NCBI GenBank assembly: GCA_032718475.1 | Contig: JAUCBJ010008239.1 | Span: 1 to 51,529, forward strand | Reading direction: 5' to 3' | Origin: Nemertoderma westbladi | Taxonomy: Eukaryota; Animalia; Xenacoelomorpha | Length of the DNA stretch: 51,529 nucleotides | Part shown: piece after piece, positions 5,243 through 42,157 of the stretch | How positions within the stretch are numbered: position 1 is the stretch's first letter | Layout: each line of letters opens with the position of its first letter | The notes under the pieces: generated by a model | Databases searched by the model: none | Told to the model about the DNA's origin: nothing | Seen by the model: the letters and a program-made list of their open reading frames with translations, nothing else | Program-made: the position numbers and the translations under genes

Positions 5243-5992
5243 GTGTTGTATCCAACGCGCCAGAAGTCAAAGAATCTCCCCGCAGTCATGACTTTTGTGG
5301 ACTTCAAGAAGGCATTTGACTCCATCCATAGATGTAAAATGTTTGAAATCCAAAGAGCTTACGGAATACCAGATGTAATTGTTGCTGGCATTGGATTGTT
5401 ATATTGTGACACAGAAGCGCAGGTACTCGCACCAGATGAATCCAAGATGAGTTTTCTCAATCCTGGCTGGCGTACTGCAAGGTACTGTAACACATTGGCG
5501 CCATTACTATTCGTAATTGTACTGGATTACGCAATGAGGACGGCCACAAAGGGTGAAGATCTGGGATTCACACTTCAAGAACGCAGAAGCAGTAGATATC
5601 CGATAACTACAGTCACAGACACAGACTTTGCGGATGACATCGCCCTGCTCTCTAATACGCTAGCAGATGCACAGCTTCTACTAAATAAAATGGAGAGGGC
5701 TGCTAAGGAGGTTGGAATGCATATAAATGCTACCAAGACCGAATTCATGACCTTTAATGTTGATGGAAACTTGACAACCATTGATAATAATCCACTAAGG
5801 AAGGTCGACGAATTACAGTACCTTGGATCATGGATAGAGAGTAGCAAAAATGACATAGAAGTTAGGAAAGCAAAGGCTTGGGTAGCTCTATCAAAAATGG
5901 ATACCATCTGGAAATCAGATCTCTCCAGGCACCTGAAGACTAAGTTCTTTCGAGCCACAGTGGAAAGTGTAATTTTATACGGGGTTAAATAA
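5243..5992 (+). pseudogene. Reverse transcriptase fragment of a LINE (RTE-like)
   Basis: FVDFKKAFDSI, disrupted QGDxLAPLLF region, DFADDIALL, INATKTEFM, YLGSWI. Truncated at both ends. Confidence 0.85.
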
Positions 5993-12449: not shown

Positions 12450-12571
12450 GAGGCGGAGCAACTTCGACAAGAAAACGAAGTTCTTAAGAAAAATTTGGTA
12501 GAACTTTATTACGCGGCTACAACGGAAATAGCAGAGCAAAGATCGAAAATCGCAGTGCTAGAACAATTACG
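12450..12571 (+). CDS. CASP8AP2: FLASH/CASP8AP2-like gene, exon 2 (N-terminal coiled coil, Lsm11-binding region in FLASH)
   Basis: Not in the ORF track. Acceptor TGTTTAG|GAG, donor TTACG|GTAAGT. Encodes EAEQLRQENEVLKKNLVELYYAATTEIAEQRSKIAVLEQLR, which aligns to FLASH [30 protein letters not shown] as I recall it. Ends in phase 2. Confidence 0.75.
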
Positions 12572-16646: not shown

Positions 16647-16654
16647 CCGCTCCA
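16647..16654 (-). other. Short polypurine-tract candidate
   Basis: TGGAGCGG directly abuts the 3' LTR on the element strand. Confidence 0.5.
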
Positions 16655-17504: not shown

Positions 17505-18968
17505 TCATCGCTTAGTTGATCGAGCCCTGCCGCGTCCTCGAAAACTGCGCACAGGTGACTTTGCTCGCGATATGGGACTTGTGGGGCGAGTCACTGGTTT
17601 ACTTGGGACGTTGAGAGACGGTGCGACTATTTCCTCACAAATTCGTCTATTTGGCATCCCAAAACCTCGACCAATTCCTCGTGACCGATCAGTCGTCACT
17701 ACAGTTGGTAGAACGTCTGGGAACGCGTGAGAAGCGGACGACGCAGACCCAAGAGTAGCTTGCGCCCCCTGTTGATCAGCTGGTGTATGTCCCGATCCTC
17801 CTACTGGTTCTCTTGGAAGTGATACCGTATCCCGAGTAACTCGAATAGTCGGCTCAACTCCCTTGCGTTCTTCCACATTAATAATTTTCTTCAATTGTTG
17901 GCCCACTTTCTGGACCCGTATGATCCTACCCTGCCCGTCCTCCCGAGGGTGACGTGCAGACGGCGCAACCGGAGTGGCTGATATATTCGTCGCCTCTAGG
18001 ACCTCTTCTTCCTCGAATACGCTCGCTCGTATACGTTTATGGTAAAACGCGGCTCGGTACGCCCATGCGACGGTTAACCAAGCTCCTTTATTCCGCTTTT
18101 CGGTTCGGAAACGATCAAATTCACCATACGTGATACGATTTACGACTTTCTGAAAATTCCACGTGTTTTTGTTATCCGGGTGAATCTGTAACAGATACTC
18201 GCGCACCACTCGAAATCCGCTGTCGTGGGGCAAAATATCGACAACCTCGATAAGTTCGTCATACTGGGGCATAGCGGAGATATATCCTTCCGACATCATC
18301 GTCTGGGGATTTACCGCCCAAAATCCGAGATGCGCTCTCATCGGAAACCGTCTTCTTTGTGCCGATACATGTTCGTCGGCCAAATCTTCCCACTCATCAA
18401 ATAACTTCCTCACGAGTTTTACAGATTCATGTTCATAAGGTATGTCTCTTAGTTGGCATTCAGATGCTCGATGTCCCTTTATATTGCAGTAAGTACATTG
18501 AGCCATAAATCTCCAGCAAGTATAAAAGGTATGAGACCCTTGATCCCCACACCATCCACAGATTAGCTGAGTCGTAGTAATGTGCTTTCCACTGCACTTT
18601 GCCATATGATGTCCAGCGACGCCACATTTACTACACATCGTATTAGCAGGGTACCACACTCGTTCGTATATAAGATCTCCAATCGGTCGAGCGCTTCCTC
18701 CCATACTATAATCGTAATCATCTGGGTCTATGGGTTGGTAGGTTTCTGAAGGTTGTATACAAACTATAGCATCTGTTGCTTCAAGTTGTCGAATCTCCGT
18801 CTGAGATTTCTTCGGGAGGTTCCTTTCTATCTCAAGAAGTTCCTCTAAAGGATCGTCGGCGATCGTAGTAGTTACGTTGAAATCATCACCGAGGTGACCG
18901 ATAGGCGCGCGCGTCTGCCGTGATTCATCCGTAATTTCCACAATACGTTCTCCTTCATAAGGTAACAT
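17505..18968 (-). CDS. Retrotransposon accessory ORF3: triple CCHC zinc-knuckle protein with RG-rich tail (487 aa from first ATG)
   Basis: CSKCGVAGHHMAKC, CGWCGDQGSHTFYTC, CTYCNIKGHRASEC; C-terminal RSRGIGRG and RGRGRAR. No signal peptide or TM segment apparent. The frame is open back to about 19016. Confidence 0.8.
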   Translation of the reverse strand: MLPYEGERIVEITDESRQTRAPIGHLGDDFNVTTTIADDPLEELLEIERNLPKKSQTEIRQLEATDAIVCIQPSETYQPIDPDDYDYSMGGSARPIGDLIYERVWYPANTMCSKCGVAGHHMAKCSGKHITTTQLICGWCGDQGSHTFYTCWRFMAQCTYCNIKGHRASECQLRDIPYEHESVKLVRKLFDEWEDLADEHVSAQRRRFPMRAHLGFWAVNPQTMMSEGYISAMPQYDELIEVVDILPHDSGFRVVREYLLQIHPDNKNTWNFQKVVNRITYGEFDRFRTEKRNKGAWLTVAWAYRAAFYHKRIRASVFEEEEVLEATNISATPVAPSARHPREDGQGRIIRVQKVGQQLKKIINVEERKGVEPTIRVTRDTVSLPREPVGGSGHTPADQQGAQATLGSASSASHAFPDVLPTVVTTDRSRGIGRGFGMPNRRICEEIVAPSLNVPSKPVTRPTSPISRAKSPVRSFRGRGRARSTKR

Positions 18969-19621
18969 AGTTGTTGATGGTTCGAACACCTCGCCAATAT
19001 CGGTTCGGGATTTTCCTTATTCAAACGCATCGGAATCGCATTTCGTTGTTCGCGCATACAAGAACCGCATTGATAATAAAGTTTATAAACTGAAAATGCT
19101 TCTTTGGTTTCTCTATCGTCCCCTCGAGTTCGTCTGTAAAGATGCATTCCATCGAATTCATCACGTACCGCGGGCATAGGTTCGTGCGCCTTTAGGTATT
19201 GCATGGTATGATACAAACGACTAATTTCAGTATCGGGGTCTTCGCTAATGTCTCCCGTATCACACAAAGCATCGTACGGGTAAAGTTCGTTGAAGGTTTG
19301 GCGCAAACTTTCGATTCTTTCGTTCAATGCGTTTTGCCTTCTCTTTAATACATTCGAGTCATATTTAGTTCTCGCGAGTTTCGCTGTACTTTCCGATAAT
19401 TCTTTTATACCGAATATAGTATAATCCTTGGCTCCAAATCTTTCGAATGGCGCTGCTGCCTCCTCTTGGATATCATATCCCCACCTCGGCTCTCCTTGTA
19501 TCCCTTTCTCCATAATTAGAGGTGTAGTTACATAATCATTACTACTAGAGGGAATACAACAGAGTTTGTAGTTAGTTGTGAGGAGACGTGAGAGTTTCGT
19601 CTGCCCTTTGGGCTTCGACAA
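18872..19621 (-). CDS. Retrotransposon accessory ORF2, unknown function (first ATG 19513, 213 aa)
   Basis: Intact ORF with a helical/coiled segment (RRQNALNERIESLRQTF) and a possible CxxC...CxxH zinc site (CGSC...CSNH). Overlaps ORF3. Confidence 0.7.
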   Translation of the reverse strand: MSKPKGQTKLSRLLTTNYKLCCIPSSSNDYVTTPLIMEKGIQGEPRWGYDIQEEAAAPFERFGAKDYTIFGIKELSESTAKLARTKYDSNVLKRRQNALNERIESLRQTFNELYPYDALCDTGDISEDPDTEISRLYHTMQYLKAHEPMPAVRDEFDGMHLYRRTRGDDRETKEAFSVYKLYYQCGSCMREQRNAIPMRLNKENPEPILARCSNHQQLCYLMKENVLWKLRMNHGRRARLSVTSVMIST

Positions 19622-20174
19622 CGCTCTAACCTCCTACCCATAGCCTAAGATCTAGGGTTTCTTTAATGACACGCTGCTTCTTATCTAAAAATTTTTGCCG
19701 AAATAAAAACGAATTTGGGCTAAACTGGCTGTGAGTCTAAAATACTCACTTTTTGATCCCAAACTATTATCAGAAAATAAGCAGTCAAGAATTAGTAATA
19801 AATATAGGGGAGTCTATTTTGACGTAACTTATTGAAACAAGACCGTGTAAAATTTTAATTAAAATTTTAAGAAAGGCTCGCAAGTCTTCCTCTCTTGTTT
19901 CTCTAATTTTAAGTTCCACCCGACTGTACCCTGAAATCTATTCACTGGAGAAAATTTTAAAAATTTTTCAAATCCAAATGGATTGTCTAAAATTTCGAAA
20001 ATGTCTCAATATTGTGAGTTCCAAGTAGAATTCCATTTCTTATACCTACAAATCCCGCTCCTATGTGACACATAAGGGTACTACCCTCAATGTTCACATA
20101 TAAAGACAATGGAATTCTACCGCTGTCCTTAATACGGTGTACAGGTACGTGGAAATCTATTTGTAAACTCCTAA

Positions 20175-23100
20175 TTATTTACTAGTATTAGGTGGAGATT
20201 TGTAGTCTCCAGACTCGTTACGAGTCTCTTCAAGAAGTACGAGACGTTGAGTCGGTCTGTCTACTGTACGACCGTCAATTGTCCGTACTGTCACAGTTCT
20301 TGTCACTCCATCCATAGATGGATGTGTGGCTAAAATGACACCTGTTATCCAGAAGCGTCTTTTTAGATTCACTTCTGCCAACAGCACGTGATCTCCCGGC
20401 TTTAATGCGCGGGTGTTATTGTACCAGTTTGTTCTGGCAGAAATAGAGGGCAAATAATGGTTTTGCCATATTTCCCAGAATTTGTTAGCTAGTAATTGCG
20501 TGATTTTCCACGCTTTTCTCCCGTAACTATCGCTTTCCATTGGAATGGAAAGCGGCGTCAAAGTCGTCGGTGCCTGCATTAGCAGGTGTGCCGGTGTCAA
20601 AGCAAACTGGGATTGTTTGTCATCGGGTACTAATACTATTGGTCTAGTATTTAGTATTGCCTCGATTTCAACAAACAATGTTGTCAGTTGGTCGTCTGTT
20701 AATATGTGGTTTACTGGAATGACCTTTGCCATGGCTGTCTTTATAGATCTAATCAATCTCTCCCAGACTCCGCCTCTCCAAGGACTATCTGGAGGATTGA
20801 ACTTCCAAACAATCTTGTGAGGTTGCAGTTCGTTTGAGATTTGATCATGATCTAATTTCTTAAAGGCTCTAGCAATCTCATTCCGAGCACCAACAAAGTT
20901 TGTCCCTTGGTCTGAGTACAAGCATTTTACTAATCCGCGTCTAGCGATAAATCGCCGTAGTGCTAGTATAAACGCGTTGGTGGAAAGATCCATCACACGT
21001 TCAATGTGAACTGCCCTACTGGACATACATGTGAAAATCAGTCCCCAGCGTTTTACTAGTATACGTCCACGTTTAGTATGTATGGGACCAAAGCAATCAA
21101 TTCCAGTCTCTGTAAAAGGTGGTCTGAATGCTTGAAGTCGTGCTTGTGGTAGTTCACTCATTTCTTGGGTACCTATTCTAGAATGTACCTTTTTACAAAT
21201 AATACACGTACGTGTCACTGAACTTAATGCTTTACTGGGTCTAATTAATACAAATCTAGTACGTAAGTAGGAAAGACAGTGGTGTCTTCCAGCGTGTTTC
21301 AGATGTAAATGTGCGTCCAGTATCATTGCACGTTGTAGTTCGTGGTGTTGCGGTATTATTATTGGGTACCTAAAGTTCGTGTTAAAGTCAATGTTTTGAA
21401 GCCGAGATTTATGACAAATTAAGCCATTATAAATAATCGGACTCCAACTCAGTATCGGTGACGACTTGATTGGTTGACCTTGATTTATAGATGTGAATTC
21501 GCGCGCGAAATATCGCAGTTGGTAATGGCGAATTAATTTAATCTCACACCTGTCAATCTCAGCCAATGTAAGTCGACGTGTGAAGTCACGTTTGCCTTTA
21601 ACGTATTGTACAAAACGTACAATCCACGCTAATTTTCGGCAAGCGTTTGACCAAGAATCTGTTAGGTTTACAATACGGTCGACATAAGTATTTGTGACGT
21701 CATCAGGTAAGTCAATGGAGAACTTGGAAGGTTTCGAATTACTAGAAGGGCCCACGGGTCCGCCGGTAAGTATTCCCTTGTTGACTGTTGATCCGTCCGG
21801 GTCTACAAGTAATTTGTCCTTCTTTGTCTTCTTACCTTGATTGTCGGTACTTTGTAAGTCGATCGTTAATGGTGGTTTGAACTCTATGGGGTCAGCAGGT
21901 TTCGGTAAACTTATTTTTCTGCCGACATTAATCCCAGGTCTCACCACAGGTTGTAAGTTCGGTATGTCTCTTGAGCGCAAAGTAACACCTGTATTTACAT
22001 TAGCGTAGGTACTACCCACATCTGCAATACATGAGGTTTCACCATGCTTATGGTTGCCCAAGTGTGTCAAAATTGGTAGTTTGTCAATACAAGGCCGCTC
22101 CAATAGGGAAACTGCGGCTTTATTGTTAGTCAATACATTACTAGTGTCTAGTCGACTGTCTAGTAGTGTGTCTGGCGATACGTCTGGTAACGTATCTGGT
22201 TGTTTGTCACTAGAAGGCCGCTCCAATAGGGAAACTGCGGCTTTACTGTTTGTCAGTGTGTTACTAGCGTCTGGTGGGACATTTTGTGATATGTCTGGCA
22301 AAATGTCTGGTTGGCTGTCTAGTAACATGTCTGGTTGACCGTCTGGCGATATGTCTGGTGTAGAAAGGCTCGCAAGTCTTCCTCTCTTGACCTTTGAAGT
22401 TATATCCTTCCATTTCGCCTTCGGTTTTTTCTTGAGTTTCGCCGCCGTCGTCCTTTTCTTTGTCTTCCCCTTTTTTGGTTTCTTGATTTCGGCGTCCTTA
22501 GGAATGGTGTTGGACTTGTTGTCGTATAACGGAGGCCAATCTTGTGTCGATTTCTGCAAGAACTGGGGTCCGTGTTGCCAAAACTCTTTGTTCTCCGGTT
22601 TACAGAATTCCTCAGGCATCATTCCTCGCGACGCAATATCAGCTGGGTTTTGTGGTCCGGGACAATGTCGCCAATCCTCTTTTATCGAACGGTCTAGAAT
22701 CTCTGCGCGACGGTTAGCTACGAATGTCTTGAATTCGAGTGTGTCGTTGTTTATGTAAAATAAAACCAACGTCGCGTCAGTCCAATAAAATATCTGTAAA
22801 CTCGACTGTAGTTCTGTCTGTATGAGGTTCACGATGGTGGTTGACAGGGTCGCGGCTTGTAGCTCGGCTCGTGGTGTCGTCATATACTTAGTAGGCATGG
22901 TCTTAGCCTTGGAAGTAATGAGCGAAACATCGAACTCGTCTGATTCTACTTGTCTGCGCAAATACGCTGCCACACCAAACCCGTTGTCACTGGCGTCAGA
23001 AAAACAGTGTAGTTCCAAGTTGTCAGGAAATGTACTCTGTAATGGAAAGTAAACCCTGGGTATGGAATAATCCTCTAACGAAGACAATTCCGCCTCCCAG

Positions 23101-26100
23101 GTCTTCCATAAGTCCACTTGATCTGATGAGATCGGCTCGTCCCACGTTAGTCCATCCTTCCATATACTGCGCATATAAATGCGGGCTTGCAGTATTACTG
23201 GACTGATGAATCCTAACGGGTCGAACAATCGGCTCAACTTTGACAAGCATGATCTCTTGGTCAGTGTGTTTCCTTGACTGTCCAGTCTCACCTTCACTCG
23301 AAAGTTGTCTGTGTTTGGGTCCCAAAAGAGCCCCAACACCTTAGTCGTCGGTAGTGGTTCGAACTCTAGGTCTATGTCACCACCTCCACGCTCAGTAGTT
23401 CCGAATGAGTCAACTAATTCGGCACTGTTTGAGGCGAATTTGGTGAGGTTAAAACCTCCGCTCGCCAAGCAGTCCCGTAATTGATGTGCTACTGTTGTAG
23501 CACGTTCTACTGTGTCGCAACTCTGTAGTCCGTCATCAACGTAAAAGTCACGTTCTACAATTCTAATTATCTCTGGGTCATACAGATGTTTCTGATCTCT
23601 AGCGGCTTGCTTCAAGGCGTACATCGTACAATTCGGGCTGTCTCTGGCACCGAAAACGCGAACTTGCATTTGGTAAGTCGCTGGTGGTAGACTTAAGTCC
23701 CCTTCCGGATACCAGAGAAACCGCAAACTGTCTCTGTCTCGCTCTAACGCTTTCACTTGGTGAAACATCGCTTCAACGTCGCAAGTAAAGGCTACTTGAC
23801 GCTGACGGAAGCGCATAATCACCCCCATAAGATAATTATTCATGTTCGGTCCATCCATCAACTCACTATTGAGGGACATTCCCTCAAACAGAGCCGCACA
23901 GTCATTGACTACGCGTACTTTATCTGGTTTGTCGGGATGTCTCACATAGTGATGTGGCAAGTAGTACGTCTGGTCTGTCACTCGCTCCGGGTTAGTCATT
24001 CGGATAGCGTATCCCTTCGTCAAATACGTCTCCATCTGAGTGTTGTACTGCAGATGGGCTTTCTCGTCCTTTAATAGACGTTGTCGGATTGAGTGTAGAC
24101 GTCTTAAAGCCAGTGGGTAGTTATTTATAAGTTTAGGACTTTGGCTACGCCATAACATACCCACCTCGTAATGTCCGTCCTCCGTCTGTCGGATAGTATC
24201 CTCCATGATCTTTAGAGATTGTTTCTCCTGTTCCGACATACAAGGGTCGTAGCTACCAGGTTCAGCTGTATCTTGTTCTAACCACCTGATAGTCTTCTCC
24301 GTTAATTCTTTGTCCAAGGCGGCTTGTTCCAACTGATGAATTTTCAACGCGTCATCGTCGATATCGATGGGCACTGTTGAAGTTATTGGGGTAGGTAGAC
24401 TCGCAAGCCTATCATCTGTCGTCGATGGAATCTCTAGCTGATTCGTCTTCTCCCCAAGTTCTAAACTCACCTTGTGGATTAGCTGCTCCTTGTGACTTAT
24501 CATACTAGTTACACGTCTGTGATGTTTTGTCGACTGTAGCGTAGTATGGTTCACGTCGTGTGAAAAGGAATGAATTGAGTTTGTAGTCAATAAACTACAT
24601 GTACTCTGTACGTCGTCTTCCTCGTCACTTACGTCCAGTGTGCGCACAGGCGCTCGAGTATACCACCCTATCGGCGTTCTGCAGGCGTATGCGTTTCCTG
24701 CTACAACTGCCGATGGTCTGGTTTCCCACACCTGATGTAGGTTGAATTGGTCCGTCCCGATCAGCATTGCTACCGATCTATAATTGACAGGACATTCGGG
24801 TACACCAAGGTGTCTGAAATACTTACGGTCCTCCAGAGATTGTTCCGGCACTGGACCTAGTAGGTTACTAAAGTCCTTCGTGGCCGCAAAGGTTAGATCT
24901 CTAAAGGGCAACAAAGACCTCTCCCTCTCGCTGTGTTGCGATTTTGGAAGAAGAGAGTCTAAGTCCAACTTAACTCGTGTCACTGGTATTGCACGCTGTC
25001 CGTGCATACTACTTACTGTATAACTGACGTGCTTACCTTGTCTAAGATCTGTTACGACGTCAGCTATCTTTTCATCTACGTAACTGTGAGATGAGGCTGA
25101 GTCTAGAATCGCGTAAATCCTCTTACTCCCTTTTGTGCCAGTAACTTTAATCGGGATTACACTGAATCCCTTCAGTTGGTCAGTGGTCAGGAGCGCGATT
25201 GACGGTTGTTCGTCTCCATTTGAATATTCGTCGTCTTCTGATTCTTCGTCCGACGATCCGGATTGTTCTGAAAAGCAATCCTCTATATGGGTCACGAAAG
25301 TCGGAGTTGTTTTCGATTCCCGTTTTCGGTAAGCCGCATCACATCTCGCTGCTGCTTCCGGGTGTTCCCTGGCGAAGCGTTTCGTCGGCGTGTGGCTGTC
25401 TGTGTGGAGCAGACCGTCGTGGTTGCGTCCACAGGATGGACAAGTGTCGGTATTTGGGCAATCCTTACGGACGTGTCCGTGTTGCGTACACCGCCAACAA
25501 GAGTCCAGTGGCCGTATCTGCAGCCGTCGTTCTTCTGAGTTCAACTCGCGAAATTGTCGACAACCCCGTAACTTGTGACCAATATACCGCTTACCTAAAT
25601 GTTCGCAGTATTGGCAGCCGTTGAAGTCGGCGCTGAGTTGCTGTCTCGTCTGTTTTGTCCCAATGGGCGCAGATACTCTATTACCGTCTGAGAATTGTCG
25701 TGATTCCGTCGGTGTGGCGTAAGTGGCCGTCTTTGTGGATGTTGTCTGGGGTTTTTGTCGGTTGGAGGATGGCAGTGTGATCCCTTCTGCCACGATGTGC
25801 TGGTCGGTATAGTTAGATCGAGTTTCTACTACCGCCTCCCTGGATATTAAAAGGTACACATCTTCTAATTTCAGGAATCCTCCTCGCTCCTCTCGCTGAT
25901 ATTCGACCTTCCTCCACTCCCGACGAAGTCGATGGTGGAGTCGTCCTATTATCTTTAATAAAACGGTAGGGGTATTTCCGTAATCAAGTTGTCCAATTGA
26001 TCTTAAGGTAGTGATAGCGTTCTTGATTTCGTCAGCTAGTTTTAGTAAGTCGACGGGTTTAGTGATAGCCCCTCCCTTACAGAGTTCTTCTATTACTGAC

Positions 26101-28961
26101 CTGGCCATACTCACTGTACCTCCGTATATCGAAGTCAAACGATCGTACGCTAGTTCGAAAGCGTCTGGTACACCGACGAAAGTCTCCGCCAAACGTTTAG
26201 GTTCTCCTGACAACGTTTGGAGCAGGTAATTGAACTTCTCCCGTGATGTAAAGGCGCACACGGCGATCTGGGATTCGATATAGTCTACGAAGGTATGCCA
26301 GTGTTTTGAGCTACCGGAGAACTTCGGTGGTTGTTGTACCGGCAATCCCTGTCTGGCTGCGAATTTCGCTATCTCCTCGGCAACGTTCAGAGTTTCGCGT
26401 CCTTGGTTGGTAGTCTGGTTGATGTTCTCCCTTCTAGGCGCTTTTCCCTGATACGATGTGGGGTTTGAAGGTACCGGTCTTTGTGGTCCCTTCGGGTGTC
26501 TATTGTGTTCGAATTCGGAATTTCTCGAACTGTCGGTGTAACCTTCCTCCAGACGTTCCTCAATCCGGGCCAACTTGTTGACAATGTCGGCGAACTGTTG
26601 CGCACCGATCGCGCCCGCTGGTGGTAACGCCTTCTGTGTCGGTGTATTCTGTGGTGGATTATCTGCAAAAGAGTTGTCTGAACGCTCGCGTTTATATTCA
26701 TCGGCCGCCCCCGTTCTAAATACCTCGCGTTTCGGGTAATCCGATTCGCTCGAAGTACTACTATCATCTGGATATGGTGGTCGACGTGCTCGCGTTCGTT
26801 GCGTCGTTCGAATTCTAACGGCTCGTTTCGGAACATCGTCCACTGATCTCCGTTGTTCGGTAGGCTCACAAGTCTTCCTCGAAGTCGTAGATTGCGATGT
26901 AAACTGGTTGAACGGTCGCGTCTCCACTGTTCTCCGTTGTTCGGTAGGCTCACAAGTCTTCCTCGAAGTCGTAGATTGCGATGTAAACTGGTTGAACGGT
27001 CGCGTCTCCACTGTTCTCCGTTGTTCGGTAGGCTCACAAGTCTTCCTCGAAGTCGTAGATTGCGATGTAAACTGAACCGGTGGGCGAATGACAGCATTTG
27101 AAACCGCTGGCCTTGTTGGTCGAAACGTCATTGGGTAAGCGTAATGTGTAACGGGTTTTGGTGTCAAAGGTGGACTCACCTGTTTTGTCGTCAGTAGTGC
27201 AGGTCCGACTAATAAACTACTACGATCTGTAATCGGTGGGTTACTTACCTTGACTCTCGGAATAGGCGACGACGTTGCTCTTGGCGGTATAAACTCGTTC
27301 GGAATAACAAACCTGTGTTCCGTCGCACCATGGATAGGAGAAATATCACTACTACCCGCAATCGAAACAGGTTCCTTAGTCGTAACCGGTGCAAACATAT
27401 GAGTTACCTGTGGGAATCGTTGACACACGTCTTTTACTAATTGTCGTTCCCGTCCGGGTGCTCCTACGCTTCCTTCCTTCTTCCGTTCCTGAATTTGGCG
27501 ATGTCTTACCTCTAACTGGTCCAAATCATGTCCGTCGCGAGATCTCATCGATCGATCGCGGGCTAGAAGATCCAGATTTTCCTTAGTTTCGGCTAATTCT
27601 CTCGCCCTCTTCTCAAGTTCGAAACGAAGTTTAACTTCCTTTTCTCGTTGTTCCGTTTGTTGTTGTTGCGCCTCGAACTCTGCTTGTCGTATCGCTTGTT
27701 GGGCTTTTATTTGCCGTGTCTTCATCTCGACTCTGGCTTCCGAAACTACTCTTTGTCGCTCTAACTCTGCCGCAGCCGTTTGTCGCTCTAACTCTGCCGC
27801 AGCCGTTTGTCGCTCTAACTCTGCCGCAGCCGTTTGTCGCTCTAACTCGGCCGCTGCCGCTGCCGTTTGTCGCTCTAACTCGGCCGCTGCCGCTGCCGTT
27901 TGTCGCTCTAACTCGGCTGTTGCCGTTCGTTGCGCTAACTCGGCCGCTGCCGCTTGTTGGGCAATGTCCAACTCTAACCTTTCCATTTCGGCCGCTTCGA
28001 GTTCGGCTTGTTCCTGCAGATGAGAGATTCTCGCTACATTCGCAACACGTATTTTCTCTTCCTCTACTGCTGTTTGTATCATTAGAAGTTGAGCTTGTTC
28101 TTCTATCTCGTGTTGCTGTCTGTAGAACTGCTGCTGTTGTCGAGCAACTTCTGACGTGACTATACTTCCTTCGCAGATTTCGCTACGAATACTTACCAAT
28201 GATTGATTTAGTATTCCCGGTGCCGATTCGATTTGTGCGAATGAAGTTTCCCTCGTGTATTCCGGCACGGTTTCCAAATCGCCGACGTCTTCGCCGCACA
28301 TGCGTAAGTGGTCCGTCAGATGTTTCAATTGTCCATCCAGTCGGTACAATTCCTGTTCTTCCTCGGGTTGTAATAATTCGTCCGAAACTGACTCACCTAA
28401 CAACTGGTCCGCTTGTTCCTGTTGTATCTGTCTAATCGTCGACTTAAACTGAATCAGTTTCTCTCTAGTGATCATTAGTTTCTCGAGGATTCTAAGTTGA
28501 GTATCCATGTCCTGTCTCTGTCTAGCTAGATCTTGTAGGCCAACTAGATTATCTACGGACTTATATACTTTACTCTGTACTCTAACCTGGAGGGTGTAGA
28601 ACTCGAATCGAGACATCGGAGCGGTCAACCCGTCTAATATGCGTTGGCCTTCTCCAATACTCCTGGTTATATGCGCCATGTATCCTCCGACGCTTCTAAC
28701 CACACTTTCTGTGCTTCCTGCTGAACTTACCAATTCCGTTTCCCTGTATCTAGGTTGCGGAACAGTTAGAAAGTCCTCGGTCCTGCCGTCGCCTCGTACT
28801 ACGGCATCCGGTACTCCCGTTGGATGTACTGGTGACGCACACGGTGTAGGTTCGGTAGGCTCGCGAGTCTTCCCCTGTGGTTCTTCCGCTGCTGACTTAT
28901 CCGCGTCACATGAGTCATAGTCGGTTTGTGTATTTTTCGTATAGTCTTGTTTGTCACTCAT
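20175..28961 (-). CDS. gag-pol: BEL/Pao Gag-Pol polyprotein, 2,928 aa (Gag-PR-RT-RNaseH-IN)
   Basis: Gag PKFSGxxxxWxxF (DUF1759-type); three BEL knuckles (CQYC..H..C, CWRCTQHGHVRKDC, CPSCGRNHDGLLH); protease AILDSAS; RT YLPHH, CDVEAMFHQV, FYVDD; RNase H FSDAS, PRAELQAA, WTD, NPADIASRG; integrase HHCC, GIDCFGP, SDQGTNF, GGVWERLI. Confidence 0.97.
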   Translation of the reverse strand: MSDKQDYTKNTQTDYDSCDADKSAAEEPQGKTREPTEPTPCASPVHPTGVPDAVVRGDGRTEDFLTVPQPRYRETELVSSAGSTESVVRSVGGYMAHITRSIGEGQRILDGLTAPMSRFEFYTLQVRVQSKVYKSVDNLVGLQDLARQRQDMDTQLRILEKLMITREKLIQFKSTIRQIQQEQADQLLGESVSDELLQPEEEQELYRLDGQLKHLTDHLRMCGEDVGDLETVPEYTRETSFAQIESAPGILNQSLVSIRSEICEGSIVTSEVARQQQQFYRQQHEIEEQAQLLMIQTAVEEEKIRVANVARISHLQEQAELEAAEMERLELDIAQQAAAAELAQRTATAELERQTAAAAAELERQTAAAAAELERQTAAAELERQTAAAELERQTAAAELERQRVVSEARVEMKTRQIKAQQAIRQAEFEAQQQQTEQREKEVKLRFELEKRARELAETKENLDLLARDRSMRSRDGHDLDQLEVRHRQIQERKKEGSVGAPGRERQLVKDVCQRFPQVTHMFAPVTTKEPVSIAGSSDISPIHGATEHRFVIPNEFIPPRATSSPIPRVKVSNPPITDRSSLLVGPALLTTKQVSPPLTPKPVTHYAYPMTFRPTRPAVSNAVIRPPVQFTSQSTTSRKTCEPTEQRRTVETRPFNQFTSQSTTSRKTCEPTEQRRTVETRPFNQFTSQSTTSRKTCEPTEQRRSVDDVPKRAVRIRTTQRTRARRPPYPDDSSTSSESDYPKREVFRTGAADEYKRERSDNSFADNPPQNTPTQKALPPAGAIGAQQFADIVNKLARIEERLEEGYTDSSRNSEFEHNRHPKGPQRPVPSNPTSYQGKAPRRENINQTTNQGRETLNVAEEIAKFAARQGLPVQQPPKFSGSSKHWHTFVDYIESQIAVCAFTSREKFNYLLQTLSGEPKRLAETFVGVPDAFELAYDRLTSIYGGTVSMARSVIEELCKGGAITKPVDLLKLADEIKNAITTLRSIGQLDYGNTPTVLLKIIGRLHHRLRREWRKVEYQREERGGFLKLEDVYLLISREAVVETRSNYTDQHIVAEGITLPSSNRQKPQTTSTKTATYATPTESRQFSDGNRVSAPIGTKQTRQQLSADFNGCQYCEHLGKRYIGHKLRGCRQFRELNSEERRLQIRPLDSCWRCTQHGHVRKDCPNTDTCPSCGRNHDGLLHTDSHTPTKRFAREHPEAAARCDAAYRKRESKTTPTFVTHIEDCFSEQSGSSDEESEDDEYSNGDEQPSIALLTTDQLKGFSVIPIKVTGTKGSKRIYAILDSASSHSYVDEKIADVVTDLRQGKHVSYTVSSMHGQRAIPVTRVKLDLDSLLPKSQHSERERSLLPFRDLTFAATKDFSNLLGPVPEQSLEDRKYFRHLGVPECPVNYRSVAMLIGTDQFNLHQVWETRPSAVVAGNAYACRTPIGWYTRAPVRTLDVSDEEDDVQSTCSLLTTNSIHSFSHDVNHTTLQSTKHHRRVTSMISHKEQLIHKVSLELGEKTNQLEIPSTTDDRLASLPTPITSTVPIDIDDDALKIHQLEQAALDKELTEKTIRWLEQDTAEPGSYDPCMSEQEKQSLKIMEDTIRQTEDGHYEVGMLWRSQSPKLINNYPLALRRLHSIRQRLLKDEKAHLQYNTQMETYLTKGYAIRMTNPERVTDQTYYLPHHYVRHPDKPDKVRVVNDCAALFEGMSLNSELMDGPNMNNYLMGVIMRFRQRQVAFTCDVEAMFHQVKALERDRDSLRFLWYPEGDLSLPPATYQMQVRVFGARDSPNCTMYALKQAARDQKHLYDPEIIRIVERDFYVDDGLQSCDTVERATTVAHQLRDCLASGGFNLTKFASNSAELVDSFGTTERGGGDIDLEFEPLPTTKVLGLFWDPNTDNFRVKVRLDSQGNTLTKRSCLSKLSRLFDPLGFISPVILQARIYMRSIWKDGLTWDEPISSDQVDLWKTWEAELSSLEDYSIPRVYFPLQSTFPDNLELHCFSDASDNGFGVAAYLRRQVESDEFDVSLITSKAKTMPTKYMTTPRAELQAATLSTTIVNLIQTELQSSLQIFYWTDATLVLFYINNDTLEFKTFVANRRAEILDRSIKEDWRHCPGPQNPADIASRGMMPEEFCKPENKEFWQHGPQFLQKSTQDWPPLYDNKSNTIPKDAEIKKPKKGKTKKRTTAAKLKKKPKAKWKDITSKVKRGRLASLSTPDISPDGQPDMLLDSQPDILPDISQNVPPDASNTLTNSKAAVSLLERPSSDKQPDTLPDVSPDTLLDSRLDTSNVLTNNKAAVSLLERPCIDKLPILTHLGNHKHGETSCIADVGSTYANVNTGVTLRSRDIPNLQPVVRPGINVGRKISLPKPADPIEFKPPLTIDLQSTDNQGKKTKKDKLLVDPDGSTVNKGILTGGPVGPSSNSKPSKFSIDLPDDVTNTYVDRIVNLTDSWSNACRKLAWIVRFVQYVKGKRDFTRRLTLAEIDRCEIKLIRHYQLRYFAREFTSINQGQPIKSSPILSWSPIIYNGLICHKSRLQNIDFNTNFRYPIIIPQHHELQRAMILDAHLHLKHAGRHHCLSYLRTRFVLIRPSKALSSVTRTCIICKKVHSRIGTQEMSELPQARLQAFRPPFTETGIDCFGPIHTKRGRILVKRWGLIFTCMSSRAVHIERVMDLSTNAFILALRRFIARRGLVKCLYSDQGTNFVGARNEIARAFKKLDHDQISNELQPHKIVWKFNPPDSPWRGGVWERLIRSIKTAMAKVIPVNHILTDDQLTTLFVEIEAILNTRPIVLVPDDKQSQFALTPAHLLMQAPTTLTPLSIPMESDSYGRKAWKITQLLANKFWEIWQNHYLPSISARTNWYNNTRALKPGDHVLLAEVNLKRRFWITGVILATHPSMDGVTRTVTVRTIDGRTVDRPTQRLVLLEETRNESGDYKSPPNTSK

Positions 28962-29168: not shown

Positions 29169-29762
29169 AACAAATAAATCAGATAACGATATGCGTTATC
29201 AAAAGGTAAATTAAATACAATAATACGGACTAATTCAGCAATGAACAAAGAAATCGTACGGAATGCATAAATACTTGAGACAGTGGAACCCACAATAATT
29301 TTAACTAAATACGGTAATGCCTAACTTATTTATGCAACTTTTCGAACTCACCCACTCCAATAATTCTCCAGAAAAACAGATTCCCAGATACAAACCGAAC
29401 GTGAACCTTTCCGTTTTTTAACGTTGCGGACGAAACGCGATTTTCCCAACCAAAGTTGTTGAGTTATCTATCTCCCAAACTTGCTAAACACGGTCTTGCT
29501 CCCGTTACAGTCTAGAAAATGAGTTCTGAATCCTGAAAAACAAAAGAGTTAGGTTTTACTTTACGAAAAATTTTGTACCGGTACAATATGGTATTTAAAC
29601 CCTTTTAAACACCGGTATTCAATTCCAAAAAATATTTTACACGCGGTTCAAATCAAATTTTATTTCAAAAAATTAGCACTTAGCTAATCAAATACAAAAT
29701 TTTACCTCAAAATACAAAATTTTCAAATAACTTTAGTCCTACCGAACCGTAGTTCAGTAAAA

Positions 29763-29773
29763 CATATTCCTAC
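29763..29773 (-). other. Primer-binding-site position, non-tRNA type (GTAGGAATATG)
   Basis: Abuts the 5' LTR, lacks TGG, and is the exact reverse complement of LTR positions 30828-30838. Confidence 0.6.
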
Positions 29774-31254
29774 TAAATTGGAGAGATACGCCTATTCCTA
29801 CTATCGGAAGAGACGGTAACAATACCTGCAATATCCTACTGTAAAGTTTGTAAATCAAATCATAAATCCGACCTTCTCACCAAAACAGTAAACCCCAAGT
29901 AAGCGAATATATTGCAGTATCGATCTCTTTTAACCGGTGAGGCAGAAAACAGTCTACGAGCAGACAAACTTCGATAAAACAAAATCCCGCGCAGCGAATC
30001 CTAAAATCAGGCTGACTCACTGACGGACTAAGAGGCTCGTATACTTTGCCGCGGTGTGATTTATATATGGTTGGGCAAAGGGACGCTAGCTAGGTACAGA
30101 GCAGATTTGGAGATGTCTAACTAGCGAGCAAAGTGCAGTAAGGACGAAAGTTAATTTTATATATTTCGAGGTGTAAATAATTTCTAACGCACGTGTGTTA
30201 ATTCTGAACGGTCAAAGCAGTTTTGCTCCTTCACATATATAATTACTGGGTATGGTGTGCATTTTACGAATATTCTAATTTGTAACTTGTAGGTCCAATA
30301 CTCACGAATGATAAGGTTCCTTCCCCTCTTGCGTATTTCCAGGACTCAAATTCAGGCATAAGGTTAATACTACGCCCAGAATTCGGCAATTTTAGGTACC
30401 AGGTCCCTGATACTAAGAAGAGATGTGTTAGTTTACTACTGTAGGCGTACGGGTACTAATAGCTATCCTGGCTCCTATCTAGAATTTTAGTCACCCAGGT
30501 AGTCCAGGTAACTTCCTATTAGGGCGTTGGCGGGGACACGGTAGATGTTAGTATATCCCTGATAGCCTCAATTTATTTGCGCCTAGCGTAAACTGCCCTA
30601 CCGCCTGAACGGTACAATCCCAATTCAGGTGAAAACACAGCAACCCCTTTAGCCTACAAGTTCTGATGTAACGGACACCGTTGTACAGTAAATAGTCGCA
30701 CACACACCTGTACTTAGCAAGAGTTAAGCGTACAGTTTGCTGCACCCTAACCAATGTGTATGCCTTGTACCGGTGTGCCTACGTCCTATCTGCGTACTAG
30801 TATCTGCTCTCTCTCTCTCTCCCCCCCGTAGGAATATGAAGGTCTACTGCGGTTTTTCCTGAATCAAGACAGTACAGTCCCTATGATGTAATTTTAGGCT
30901 TGCAGCGTGTCACTACGTCTACCTTTGATCTTTTGGTCTTACACTTAGGTAGCAAGGATCGAACGCTGTCTAACCTTTCAGGCGATGGGCGAATAACTAG
31001 ATGGTATTGCGGGTTGTCTCCCGTCTACATTCCCGTGATGTTCCCGTTCATTGCTGCGGCCCGATCTCTAGCTGGCCATCCTGTCCCTGAGTTTGTTCAC
31101 CGTAGTGAAACCATATTAAAACAGATAGAAAAGGGCTGAGATGTGACTAGTATTTCTGACTTTATTACAAAACATATAATAACTATTATACAATAAACAA
31201 TGTAATCTGAAATAAGACAGAAAGCGAATGATGGAAATTGCAGTAGTGATTGAG

Positions 31255-31423
31255 AACTAATGAACGAATCGCACCTTTATATACTAAATTTGTGCCGCAA
31301 TCAATCGAGAAAATTCTCGATTGTTCTATGGGTTCTAACAAGGTTTTAAAGATAGCTTATTGGTCCAGCTAATATATAACTTGCACGACATTGGTTACAA
31401 TCAAATAACTACAGCCTTATTGG
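31255..31423 (-). promoter_or_regulatory. Candidate Pol II promoter in the LTR: three CCAAT boxes, TATA box, Inr
   Basis: CCAAT near 31422, 31393 and 31363, TATATAAAG at 31283-31275, TTAGTT at 31260-31255. An AATAAA lies about 95 nt downstream. Confidence 0.5.
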
Positions 31424-31480
31424 TACAGACAAATGCAATTAATTTGTAGCGGTTAATTTAAATGAGTTGAAATTCTGCAC

Positions 31481-31567
31481 AAAAAATAATTCGCACTTAC
31501 TAGGATTTGAACTCGATACCTACTATACTTATAATTTCCAACGCTCTACCAACTGAGCTACTGAACC
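31481..31567 (-). ncRNA. tRNA-derived Pol III-like unit inside the 5' LTR (U3)
   Basis: Same sequence as 16434-16520: A box, B box, T6. Confidence 0.55.
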
Positions 31568-31693
31568 ACTTGACCGATAGATGCATAATAGATAGAACCA
31601 ATACTAATGAGAACTCAAAGCAATCTTTACAAAGTTAATTCGAATAAAATAAAATTTTGAAAATCCACGGCATTTAGGGAATATAATTCTATA

Positions 31694-31794
31694 TACGGGA
31701 ATAATTACGGTAAGTTCCTGGAACAATTACAGTAAGTTCCTCGTCCCTGGAATAATTACGGTAAGTTTCTGAAACAATTACAGTAAGTTTCTGG
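31694..31794. repeat. Continuation of the 29/22-bp satellite after the retrotransposon
   Basis: Same GGAACAATTACRGTAAGTT units resume immediately after the TSD. Confidence 0.9.
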
Positions 31795-32171
31795 AGAGTT
31801 GGGTTCATTGCCATAAGCTGTTTAGAGAATATTGCTTTAGTTTACGTAACACAAAGTTAGAAGCGAGCTAATTTCGTAATATCTGATATACAAAATCATG
31901 TTTCTAGTAGTGTGCCTAATGGTGTCTCACACCCTGGTGTGTGTCGTAATCTCTTTGAAATGATACTTCTTATTTTTTTGAATACCGTAACTCAACCCCC
32001 GGTCATTGAAAATAAGAGATTATGATTGAACAATGAACAACCTTTGATATTATGACATAATTTTTATTTTTTATTTGTTTATTGTATATTGTTTATTTAT
32101 TTGTGAATTTATCGTGAATCGGATTTGATAATATGGATTAGGAGATTATTACGGTTGGTGGAATAGCCATA

Positions 32172-34359
32172 GCGGGTTTTACAATAATGGGCCATGTCGA
32201 ATAACGAGGGTGGGTTTTACAATAATGAGCCATGTCCAATAACGAGGGTGGGGATTACAATAATGGGCCATGTCCAATAACGAGGGTGGGGATTACAATA
32301 ATGGGCCATGTCCAATAACGAGGGTGGGTATTACAATAATGGGCCATGTCCAATAACGAGGGTGGGTATTACAATAATGAGCCATGTCCAATAACGAGGG
32401 CGGGTTTTACAATAATGAGCCATGTCCAATAACGAGGGCGGGTTTTACAATAATGAGCCATGTCCAATAACGAGGGTGGGGATTACAATAATGGGCCATG
32501 TCCAATAACGAGGGTGGGTATTACAATAATGAGCCATGTCCAATAACGAGGGCGGGTTTTACAATAATGAGCCATGTCCAATAACGAGGGTGGGTTTTAC
32601 AATAATGAGCCATGTCCAATAACGAGGGCGGGTTTTACAATAATGGGCCATGTCGAATAACGAGGGGGCGTTTTACAATAATGAGCCATGTCCAATAACG
32701 AGGGCGGGTTTTACAATAATGAGCCATGTCCAATAACGAGGGTGGGTTTTACAATAATGAGCCATGTCCAATAACGAGGGCGGGTTTTACAATAATGAGC
32801 CATGTCCAATAACGAGGGCGGGTTTTACAATAATGAGCCATGTCCAATAACGAGGGCGGGTTTTACAATAATGAGCCATGTCCAATAACGAGGGCGGGTT
32901 TTACAATAATGAGCCATGTCCAATAACGAGGGCGGGTTTTACAATAATGAGCCATGTCCAATAACGAGGGCGGGTTTTACAATAATGAGCCATGTCCAAT
33001 AACGAGGGCGGGTTTTACAATAATGAGCCATGTCCAATAACGAGGGCGGGTTTTACAATAATGAGCCATGTCCAATAACGAGGGCGGGTTTTACAATAAT
33101 GAGCCATGTCCAATAACGAGGGCGGGTTTTACAATAATGAGCCATGTCCAATAACGAGGGCGGACAATAATGAGCCATGTCCAATAACGAGGGCGGGTTT
33201 TACAATAATGAGCCATGTCCAATAACGAGGGCGGGTTTTACAATAATGAGCCATGTCCAATAACGAGGGCGGGTTTTACAATAATGAGCCATGTCCAATA
33301 ACGAGGGCGGGTTTTACAATAATGAGCCTTGTCCAATAACGAGGGCGGGTTTTACAATAATGAGCCATGTCCAATAGGTGGGTATTACAATAATGAGCCT
33401 TGTCCAATAACGAGGGCGGGTTTTACAATAATGAGCCATGTCCAATAGGTGGGTATTACAATAATGAGCCATGTCCAATAACGAGGGCCGGTTTTACAAT
33501 AATGAGCCATGTCCAATAACGAGGGGCGTTTTACAATAATGAGCCATGTCCAATAACGAGGGCGGGTTTTACAATAATGAGCCATGTCCAATAACGAGGG
33601 TGGGTATTACAATAATGAGCCATGTCCAATAAAGAGGGCGGGTTTTACAATAATGAGCCATGTCCAATAACGAGGGCGGGTTTTACAATAATGAGCCATG
33701 TCCAATAACGAGGGAGGGTTTTACAATAATGAGCCATGTCCAATAACGAGGGCGGGTTTTACAATAATGAGCCATGTCCAATAACGAGGGCGGGTTTTAC
33801 AATAATGAGCCATGTCCAATAACGAGGGTGGGGATTACAATAATGGGCCATGTCCAATAACGAGGGGCCGTTTTACAATAATGGGCCATGTCCAATAACG
33901 AGGGCGGGTTTTACAATAATGAGCCATGTCCAATAACGAGGGTGGGTTTTACAATAATGAGCCATGTCCAATAACGAGGGCGGGTTTCACAATAATGAGC
34001 CATGTCCAATGACGAGGGCGGGTTTTACAATAATGAGCCATGTCCAATAACGAGGGTGGGTTTTACAATAATGAGCCATGTCCAATAACGAGGGAGGGTT
34101 TTACAATAATGAGCCATGTCCAATAACGAGGGCGGGTTTTACAATAATGAGCCATGTCCAATAACGAGGGCGGGTTTTACAATAATGAGCCATGTCCAAT
34201 AACGAGGGCGGGTTTTACAATAATGAGCCATGTCCAATAAGTCCAATAACGAGGGTGGGGATTACAATAATGGGCCATGTCCAATAACGAGGGGCCGTTT
34301 TACAATAATGGGCCATGTCCAATAACGAGGGCGGGTTTTACAATAATGAGCCATGTCCA
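32172..34359. repeat. 38-bp tandem repeat, about 57 copies
   Basis: Unit TTTTACAATAATGAGCCATGTCCAATAACGAGGGCGGG with minor variants; no unique spacers. Confidence 0.97.
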
Positions 34360-34921: not shown

Positions 34922-35177
34922 ATTGAAAAATTATAGAGACCAAAAGTGACCAAAACAAAGTTAATTGACGTATATTACGGCCAACAGGCCTTTATTCAAC
35001 GTCTAAAGTCAGGTTTATTTATTTAAACACCGAACCGACGGACTGACAGCTGTCAGTCCGTCGGTTCGGTGTTTAAATAAATAAACCTGACTTTAGACGT
35101 TGAATAAAGGCCTGTTGGCCGTAATATACGTCAATTAACTTTGTTTTGGTCACTTTTGGTCTCTATAATTTTTCAAT
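34922..35177. repeat. Perfect spacer-less palindrome, 2 x 128 bp
   Basis: Centre GACTGACAG|CTGTCAGTC between 35049 and 35050. Arms are complementary out to 34922/35177. Confidence 0.95.
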
Positions 35178-36612: not shown

Positions 36613-38373
36613 GTTGATGTTTGTCGGGAAAACAACCGCACGAGAGCTGATACGGTTCCTTGTTCTAGAGATGGGCGCGCGAAGCAGACTAGCATGCCGT
36701 CACCAAGGACACCACCAACCTCTCTCGGTAAACCATTTATCCATAGAAGTCGTCTTTCCAAATTCGCGAGGGACGACGGACAATCTCCTGATGTAATTAG
36801 TAGACCGGATGCCGTTGTGTCGAATTCTCCATCAACCGTCTCTGGGACGTCTCGTAATCCATTACATGCCGTTTTAAACTCGACGAACAAGATTAATAAA
36901 CACCAATCCCTACCGTTTTACCCACCTCCCCTACCCTTTACCCACCCAAATACCGCGCGTAGAATTAAATCTCCGGCTAAATCGAAAAAGAACCGAAGTA
37001 ACATCGGGGACCCGAGAACGCGTCGAATTATTCCGAAGAAACAACGGACTTCGCCAACCCTCCGGGAAACGGCGGTAATTATTCCGTCTTCGCTCGTTCC
37101 ATCAGATAAACGCGACTCCCTTAGCGGAAGTAGCGTCGGTTGTGCCCCGCTAGATGGCGCAACCGTAGATACAAACTATTCCTCTGGGGTGTCTGTCGCT
37201 GTAGATTGCGCGAAGTATAGCAATCCTTCGTCTGTGAAGACTTCATGTAGTCAGGCCATTCCACCACAAACTGAAAAACTTAAAACGAAAATTAAACTTA
37301 GCGATTATAGAACTCGGTCAATACAACGCCCACCTGCGTTGTCAGCTGATCGCATTCCTAAAACGTTGACCACAACAGAAACTGATTCCGCGTCAGGTGG
37401 TATATCTAGGAAGGACTCCTCTATTAATGCGAAAGACCCATCTAGTATTTCTGTGACGGATTCTACTATTATGGAGGCCAAAGATTCACCTAGTGCATTC
37501 AAGAGTGACCCACCATCAGTGGCCGTTGACTCCACGCATGTTATACTTAAAACAGATTCCGCTAAAGACTCTCAAACAGAATCGCTCATAGATTCCCATC
37601 AACTAGACCCCCCAAAGAACGCCCCTCCCCACCTAGACGACTCACATTATGTGACATTGTTCCAAAAACGAATGGCTCGTAAGATCAAACTGGTAGAGGG
37701 AATGCATAAAGAAACTCAGGCAACTTGTGGTAACATTATTGAACCAACAATGGAATCCTGTTGTCTCTCACCGATGGTATCCAGTTCCAATATGAACACA
37801 ACCTTGCGGACACCGACGTTAGGTTTAGTGTCCGCTACTTCCACACCCAACGCCCATTCTACTCCTGCGTCTCAACCCTCAAAGCCAGGAGTCGACAATA
37901 ATATGGGAACGGAAGTTCCAGGAACTCCAATAGTTGAGCCATTTTCTCTTCCCATAAACGACTCATTATTACATAACTCGGTTGAAACCGATAATTTAAT
38001 TCCAATTAGTTGTAGCGATTCTCCATGCCGATCCGATCCGGTTCGGAAGATTTCATTGTTGGATCACATTCGCTCTTCTATCGGAGTGCGAACCAACTTT
38101 ATATCCGGGGATTCCAGTGAGGGCCGCCGGTCTCTGTCGCCCGACGGCGGGCCCTATACGCCGCTTACACCTTCTAGAATCAAGAAAACCGCGCCCAAGA
38201 TGCGGATTACTAATACGTTAGTAGTTGCTGCTGATGTCACCCCTGGTGCTGCATCCGCATGCGTTAATGTGTCAGAAAACTCATCCAAAGAGTTATCAGA
38301 AGACGTTGATATGCCAAGTAATGTAAATAATGAAATTACGATTTCAAGTGACGAGAATGATACAACACAACAG
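36613..38373 (+). CDS. CASP8AP2: FLASH/CASP8AP2-like gene, exon 4 (587 aa, S/P/T-rich, disordered)
   Basis: Acceptor GGTTTTAG|GTT in frame with ORF 36694; donor CAG|GTACGG; phase 0 at both ends. Confidence 0.75.
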
Positions 38374-38852
38374 GTACGGTTTATTTCTTGTGAAATATTA
38401 TTATTATTTATTTTATAATTTAAATATTTTATATTCGCGCGAAATCGGATTCATTATCGCGAATATATTAAATTACGGGAGAGTAACGATGGCCTGTGCT
38501 AATGGAATTAATTTATTGTTTTGGTTAGAATTACAAGCCACCGCAACCTGCTACATAACTTTTAAAGAATTGCCGAAACCCTTTCAAATGAGCCAAAAAT
38601 AAAGAAAATTGGATAAAAAATGGTGGAGGAGTAGTAATTTGAAAAATGAAAAATATCATTCCAAGATAATAGCCTTCAAAGTTTAAACCTTCCCACCAGA
38701 ACTGGCTGTCTATGGTCTCGTTGGTTAATTATTTCTGGCATGATAGAAGCACATCACCGGGCAAAACTTTGGTTTCGCTAAGCGGTTTTCAGATTTGAAA
38801 TCCTCATTAAATTCTGCTTGAAATTAAGTTGCATCTGTGTGAATACTGAGCA

Positions 38853-41869: not shown

Positions 41870-42157
41870 AATTATAACCCTAGAATACGAAATATTAATT
41901 TTTCTTTATATTATATTTTATAATTTAACTTTCTTTGCCTTCTTCAAATCCAGTGAGCAGAAAGAGGGCGTTCTGCATCTTATGTTAAATCTTAAAATAA
42001 AAAATAAAATAAACATTAATTGAAAGAATGTATTATTGGCTAGTGAAAAAAAGCATTACTTTCTTTCATTATTTTTCAAAATTTGAGTAAGTAGGCACTT
42101 CTAATTTTTCAGGGTGTTGTTATTTAATTTAATACAATTTAATTACTTTATTTCCAG

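Follow-up and report, generated by a model that had tools for sequence, protein, structure and literature searches.

A 17-kb BEL/Pao retrotransposon with near-identical LTRs

The window, by which we mean the whole 51,529-nucleotide stretch of Nemertoderma westbladi DNA analyzed here, carries on its minus strand an entire LTR retrotransposon of 16,967 bp (17.0 kb). The 5' LTR (29774-31693, minus strand) and the 3' LTR (14727-16646, minus strand), both found by self-comparison, are each 1,920 bp long and match at 1,919 of 1,920 positions, with a single mismatch at 30687/15640; because the pair differs at one base, we consider the insertion to be very recent. The element is flanked by a target-site duplication, CCGTA, present upstream at 31694-31698 and downstream at 14722-14726 (both minus strand), and it lies within a 29-bp (22+7) satellite seen at 12500-14720 and 31696-31795. 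The edge of the 5' LTR agrees with loose contig ends at 31693, seen in both run X4 and run X5; run X5 is RNA by guess only, and its uncovered parts were excluded from the evidence. The LTRs have TA..TA ends (29774 and 31693) rather than TG..CA, nearly all of the relatives described below having TG..CA (L048 ends in TA), and there is no spacer to either the primer-binding site (PBS) or the polypurine tract position, where a purine-rich GGAGCGG (16647-16653, minus strand) directly precedes the 3' LTR.

An uninterrupted gag-pol open reading frame spans 20175-28961 (minus strand), with an open frame of 2,933 codons and the first ATG at 28961. It contains DUF1759, Peptidase_A17, integrase zinc finger and DUF5641 domains, the Pfam matches being PF05380 (E=2.5e-42), PF03564, PF18701 and PF17921; the Pao-type reverse transcriptase-RNase H and the BEL-type Gag and integrase domains follow a gypsy-like order, and a protein search returned 1,186 homologues. 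The closest proteins in two protein searches are 44-45% identical, with no relative above that level, and the named ones come from molluscs, echinoderms, cnidarians and fish. Two further open reading frames, which overlap each other, lie between pol and the 3' LTR (17505-19633, minus strand). The first, of 253 codons (18872-19633, minus strand), has no Pfam family, and the second, of 503 codons (17505-19016, minus strand), contains three CCHC-like zinc knuckles, although its zf-CCHC match (E=0.003) falls short of the cut-off and the further matches are leads with scores below 0.9. Pfam offers no support for an env-like identity of the 503-codon product, which with its knuckles and Arg/Ser-rich tail could be a nucleic-acid chaperone.

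The element is thus a young BEL/Pao retrotransposon, as the first-pass annotation had it; the domains of Pol, their order and the 1,186 homologues all bear this out, and membership by phylogeny rests on Pol. It resembles the Belpaoviridae in its single gag-pol reading frame, Peptidase_A17, DUF1759 and DUF5641 domains, integrase placed after reverse transcriptase-RNase H, paired LTRs and 5-bp duplication. The ICTV description gives that family an 18-nt PBS for host tRNA-Arg or tRNA-Gly, LTRs 0.2-1.2 kb long and a genome size of 4.2-10 kb (PMC8742986), whereas this element has no tRNA PBS, LTRs of 1.92 kb, a length of 17.0 kb, TA..TA ends and two extra 3' reading frames. According to PMC6238403, the Sailor lineage (Sinbad, Sparrow, Surcouf) and the Suzu clades are reported from molluscs, echinoderms, cnidarians and fish, the same host groups as the element's nearest named proteins; the likeness is one of hosts, and the best identity is only 44-45%.

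A primer-binding site complementary to the element's own LTR

The first 11 nucleotides behind the 5' LTR, GTAGGAATATG (29763-29773, minus strand), occupy the PBS position without any spacer and without TGG, so that the 18-nt tRNA-Arg or tRNA-Gly site of the ICTV type is absent there. ARAGORN found no tRNA genes, and Rfam gave chance matches only. The exact complement of the PBS, CATATTCCTAC, lies unsplit within the LTR at 30828-30838 (minus strand) and is the predicted self-primer, for which we infer a cut after C30828; its 3' end is AC, as it is in 15 of 17 related families. A further copy in the 3' LTR (15781-15791, minus strand) may serve as the template for rebuilding progeny LTRs. CATATTCCTAC is the longest complement of at least 8 nt between 29830-29750 and 31693-29500.

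When the LTR is shuffled with its dinucleotides preserved, such a complement arises at offset 0 in 2 of 5,000 sequences, and an 11-mer at any offset from 0 to 3 in 16 of 5,000. A more permissive null, open to any GT..AG splice and to offsets of 0-5, lets 6 of 60 shuffles reach 11 nt, and because of this the window alone is suggestive and not conclusive. The first-pass annotation had described a PBS lacking UGG that abuts the LTR and an exact 11-nt complement inside it, and we find both, at 29773-29763 and 30838-30828 respectively; its estimate that chance would account for the match at about 1e-3 or less is also right, given the two stricter shuffles.

Folding of the leader RNA, with three RNA starts and two ends giving six folds, predicts the 11-bp helix with a mean pair probability of 0.74-1.00 in five of the six and 0.00 in the longest. 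In those five folds where the 11-bp helix forms, the second duplex postulated earlier is also predicted, with a mean pair probability of 0.56-0.70; its 5' arm, GGAGAGA (30816-30822, minus strand), lies beside the predicted cut in a G7-AGAGA context, and its 3' arm is TCTCTCC (29780-29786, minus strand). We note too that U5 contains a partial duplicate of the LTR-end/PBS junction, TAGTAGGAATA (29793-29803, minus strand), which lies 28 nt upstream of the same letters at the junction itself and is predicted to form a local hairpin. Its role as a competitor for the primer was considered and dropped, the pair probability with the primer being 0.00 in all six folds.

Candidate promoter, RNA start and polyadenylation signals

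Three CCAAT boxes (31423, 31394 and 31363) and TATATAAA at 31283 make up a promoter-like segment at 31276-31425 (minus strand), and its arrangement makes a position near 31255 the best candidate for the RNA start. That such a promoter stands upstream of the primer had been recognized at the outset, and it is present where it was placed, the TATA motif being 445 nt upstream. The proposal that RNA starts at 30837-30838, making the primer the first 11 nt of the transcript, is in contrast unsupported: at about 30 nt upstream of position 30838 the window LTR lacks a TATA, and the relatives are mixed, with a TATA 120-135 nt upstream of the primer in three of ten, at 31 nt in one, and none found upstream in six. 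From these TATA positions, in the window and in the relatives, the primer is perhaps the 3' end of a longer 5' fragment.

Two AATAAA signals bear on the 3' end of the RNA. The downstream one (15525-15530, minus strand; 5' copy at 30577-30572) lies 251 nt behind the primer end, and the suggestion that it could define a compatible R region is helped by its position, which fits, and weakened by a stronger-looking rival at 16119-16114. This upstream signal (16114-16119, minus strand; 5' copy at 31166-31161) has a U-rich tract behind it, and the series CCAAT-TATA-AATAAA(31166)-U-rich looks like a complete, textbook U3-R arrangement, by which the RNA would terminate upstream of the primer; in this the relatives differ. 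In six of ten relatives the sole LTR AATAAA or ATTAAA lies 11-89 nt behind the primer end, with none before the primer, as the priming model requires. Bypass of the stronger-looking signal at 16119 is the main tension of that model.

Variation within the family

Contigs of four runs were aligned to 29400-31800. At 30836, the third base of the primer, a variant takes up 20% of the summed contig depth in X1, 24% in X2 and 94% in X4, and it would convert a U-A pair to a C-A mismatch unless PBS base 29765 also changes; no compensating PBS change appears among the 40 of 142 contig rows displayed, in which coverage of that base is uncertain. We regard this variant as weakly against the priming model or neutral, given the distal position of the base and possible solo LTRs. 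Runs X1 and X2 cover the LTR more deeply than the internal region. In X4, coverage of 31263-31667 is about tenfold that of the remaining LTR, and because of this the segment may be common to another repeat. Record 19 of X4 (29945-30646) has 91 other letters in 701, many of them T>C on the plus strand and hence A>G on the element sense, a pattern that suggests reverse transcription of an RNA hyper-edited from A to I.

Predicted splice-built complements in related elements

An alignment-based scan of metagenome contigs provided 80 BEL loci, the best 80 of 536. Direct repeats allowed the LTR end to be mapped in 12 of these, with 68 of 80 lacking a mappable end in this first test. Among the 12 mapped relatives, eight have a complement that spans a predicted intron, two have a contiguous complement, and two have TGG sites, which we take to be tRNA-Tyr-like, without a complement. 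In the eight spliced relatives the best complement is 10-15 nt long and runs across the exon-exon junction, the introns being 71-164 nt; although any GT..AG was permitted, the donor is GTAAG in all eight, the acceptors listed are pyrimidine-rich, and the observed length is reached by 0-11 of 300 shuffles. The two contiguous complements are 10-11 nt long (4 of 2,000 and 38 of 2,000 shuffles), and the best self-complement of the two TGG-site relatives is just 4-5 nt. Predicted pairing is greater for the spliced than the unspliced RNA in 8/8 spliced relatives, and is strong in four (0.68-0.97) and weak in four (0.01-0.25).

A wider scan, part of which used a 30-600 nt distance rule, adds L002, L003, L010, L024, L032, L034, L040, L046, L050, L052 and L058, bringing the spliced total to 19 loci in 15 families, with introns predicted from sequence. 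Matches of L001, L009 and L044 and the 5'-region match of L064 had an impossible geometry and were dropped before counting. A spliced match of at least 11 nt occurs in 11 of 70 sense 5' regions and in none of 70 antisense, and loci match their own 3' LTR in 9 of 31 cases, compared with 35 of 930 cross pairs, which include some kin. Contiguous matches, when scanned for without an anchor, showed no enrichment, with three sense and four antisense among 70. A junction motif search of the metagenome contigs yielded no match, and no BEL loci were found in the viral contigs. Contiguous 11-nt self-complements with the context of the group are also seen at L054:226-402 and L076:122-283, candidates without a mapped LTR end that were left out of the counts, and the L054 site, GTAGAAAATCT, resembles the window PBS.

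The complementarity foreseen in diverged relatives, with changed letters on both sides, is kept across 17 BEL families other than that of the window (15 spliced and two contiguous). Their PBS letters differ, starting with GT in 15 and AT in two, with A at position 6 in 15 and at position 7 in 13, and the PBS lies 0-4 nt behind the LTR, with no spacer in four of the 17. The window PBS has G, T, A and A at the corresponding positions and fits this group pattern. Because the PBS of the spliced relatives mirrors the spliced junction, the pairing is expected to occur at the RNA level. Plus-strand synthesis copies the primer into the PBS, as is established for tRNA-primed retroelements, and the two together point to the element's own RNA as the primer.

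A tree of reverse transcriptase-RNase H and integrase (828 columns, 25 of 64 aligned rows, picked by PBS type) places 16 of 16 self-complementary rows on one side of a branch, opposite three TGG-type rows, with the root assumed. The window element is on the self-priming side with support of 94/88, just below the star level of the tool, and under the same assumed root is the deepest row there; its branch is long (1.37) and its identity is only 38-46%. No GTAAG..AG intron splits the window primer, which is contiguous, and the splice-built alternatives that we tried in the window LTR reach 12-13 nt only with G-U pairs and weak sites, and we rejected them. Comparison of the primers (CATAT-TCCTAC in the window, CATTT|TCGAAC in L031) illustrates the likeness, and the most fitting reading of the window element is that it lacks the intron and is either a member of the group with predicted splice-built primers or its sister.

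A model for self-priming

Self-priming independent of tRNA, the central proposal of the first-pass annotation, is the likeliest reading, given the lack of a tRNA-type PBS and the complementarity kept in 17 other families. That this BEL/Pao element primes itself, counting delivery of the primer in cis and in trans together, we regard as quite likely, and we think it probable that the window element primes reverse transcription with a piece of its own LTR RNA cut free just after C30828. RNA would start at or upstream of 30838, with a start near 31255 from the CCAAT/TATA promoter preferred, and 30838-30828 would pair with the PBS while the second helix forms alongside. By analogy with Tf1, the RNase H of the element would then nick after ...AC, and the new 3'-OH would prime a strong-stop DNA of 1,054 nt; this DNA would begin at the last base of the LTR, which would explain the zero spacer. 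Transfer of the strong-stop DNA to the 3' LTR would span 15780 to about 15510, a step for which the RNA must be polyadenylated at the 15530 signal and not at 16119, and the upstream LTR would be rebuilt from the copy in the 3' LTR. Plus-strand copying of the primer would rewrite the PBS and keep the two complementary, and because of this rewriting the PBS of the relatives would mirror the spliced RNA and not the DNA.

The primer could instead act in trans, as a separate short LTR-derived RNA (from a solo LTR, the 3' LTR or a prematurely ended transcript, and spliced in the relatives) that is packaged and primes the genomic RNA. This would let the relatives keep the intron in their genomic RNA yet use a spliced primer, and it is in keeping with the weak cis pairing predicted in four of eight relatives and with the deeper coverage of the LTR than of internal sequence in runs X1 and X2. 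However, delivery in trans would still require a 3' end after ...AC, cis pairing across 1 kb is predicted at 0.74-1.00 in five of six window folds together with the adjoining second helix, and the Tf1 precedent, in the available part of PMC7175516, is in cis; we consider delivery in trans unlikely. The chance that the window match is an accident, with a mechanism unrelated to that of the spliced families, seems very small. The branch is long, identity is only 38-46%, and 6 of 60 shuffles reach the same length under the loosest null, but the match occurs in just 2 of 5,000 at the exact PBS position, and the window shares the GT start and the A6/A7 pattern of the group.

Retroelement leaders commonly form long-range pairings, and here the pairing might be a switch of the leader RNA, structural or regulatory in kind, acting in packaging, dimerisation or translation, with priming left to something else. 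This general background favors such a switch, as does the strong upstream poly(A) signal, which poorly suits the priming model, but the pairing in 17 families ends 0-4 nt from the LTR end and on a fixed AC/AT, just where priming must begin, and no alternative primer site is visible; we rate this reading as quite unlikely. A shade less probable still is priming by a host tRNA fragment or small RNA that ends in the same 11 bases, the LTR match being incidental or a copied relic. Half-tRNA primers without TGG do exist among copia elements, as the portion of PMC6317226 available to us records. Against this, 17 distinct PBS sequences occur among the relatives, and each matches the LTR of its own element, mostly across a splice junction, so that one host RNA would not explain them, and the window PBS follows the same pattern. 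We lean slightly toward a broader view, in which an old and large animal branch of BEL/Pao swapped its tRNA primer for a self-primer that is mostly assembled by the spliceosome from an LTR intron, so that splicing licenses reverse transcription, and in which the 17-kb element represents a deep intron-less lineage whose primer is internal and cut about 430 nt from the cap.

Relation to known self-priming systems

In Tf1, as described in the consulted parts of PMC7175516 and PMC5341516, the RNA's initial 11 bases anneal to the PBS, and the cut by RNase H falls between bases 11 and 12. The element has several traits in common with Tf1 and Tf2 of Schizosaccharomyces pombe and with the Tf1/sushi group of Ty3/gypsy elements (also Tj1 and Tcn1): a PBS adjoining the LTR that matches 11 nt of it, no tRNA site, and a predicted adjacent second helix. 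Its Pol, however, is of the BEL/Pao type and not that of the chromovirus-related Ty3/gypsy elements, and it is not a member of that group. It departs from Tf1 also in that a primer at the RNA 5' end is unsupported here, and probably does not apply in several relatives, and in its loop of 1,054 nt. In 15 related families, moreover, the primer is split by a predicted intron, for which the sections seen of the Tf1/sushi literature describe no counterpart.

Self-priming is described for Tf1/sushi and Tcn1 and, as a prediction, for TAR copia elements, as far as the available text of PMC6317226, PMC4600332 and PMC5006619 goes. The TAR lineage of plant Ty1/copia (Houba, Osr-1) is predicted from sequence to self-prime outside Tf1/sushi (PMC6317226, in the part at hand), and because of this the strategy appears to have arisen more than once; those are copia elements of plants, and the same part of that paper does not mention an intron-split primer. 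In the searchable, non-subscription literature we found no report of self-priming or of a splice-built primer in BEL/Pao, and a word search of the retrievable text of the BEL/Pao surveys PMC554778, PMC3118150 and PMC6238403 (likewise PMC2774666) returned no discussion of the PBS or of priming. By analogy, the mechanism is likely to work like that of Tf1, in an element outside its group.

In the ICTV account host tRNA is the primer throughout the family, and in the literature searched self-priming is confined to some gypsy and copia lineages. If it proves true, a BEL/Pao self-primer would add another independent origin of self-priming, one in animals, and would account for the PBS that LTR finders miss in many marine BEL elements. 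The splice-mirroring PBS of the relatives would then tie reverse transcription to host splicing, and would pose the puzzle of how the 3' repeat of one RNA can retain the intron. The occurrence of both intron-bearing and intron-less families, the window element among the latter, makes self-priming directly testable.

Other features of the window

Several further features of the element and its surroundings deserve mention. In U3, a tRNA-like A-box and B-box followed by a T6 run lie at 31485-31575 (minus strand), and also in the 3' LTR; ARAGORN makes no call there. We considered this stretch as an element-encoded primer and set it aside, its fold having a z of -0.13 against shuffles and its 8-nt match behind the PBS being of chance length. 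U3 further contains one of two strong acceptors, at 31207, and at 31500 a donor reading GTAAGT. A textbook branch point, pyrimidine tract and AG stand at 29533-29560 (minus strand), 240 nt behind the PBS, and a U5 donor joined to this acceptor would yield a Gag-Pol mRNA without the PBS.

Outside the element, a separate 38-bp array of about 58 copies occupies 32172-34359, and a perfect 128-nt inverted repeat without a spacer at 34922-35177 is either a real palindrome or an assembly artefact. Two low-complexity open frames without Pfam matches, of 2,083 and 601 codons, lie at 42143-48394 and 36613-38418 (both plus strand), one of them containing about 50 copies of a 7-residue repeat, and they are probably large exons of a host gene. 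At 5237-5992 (plus strand) there is a fragment that resembles, by eye, the reverse transcriptase of a non-LTR retrotransposon.
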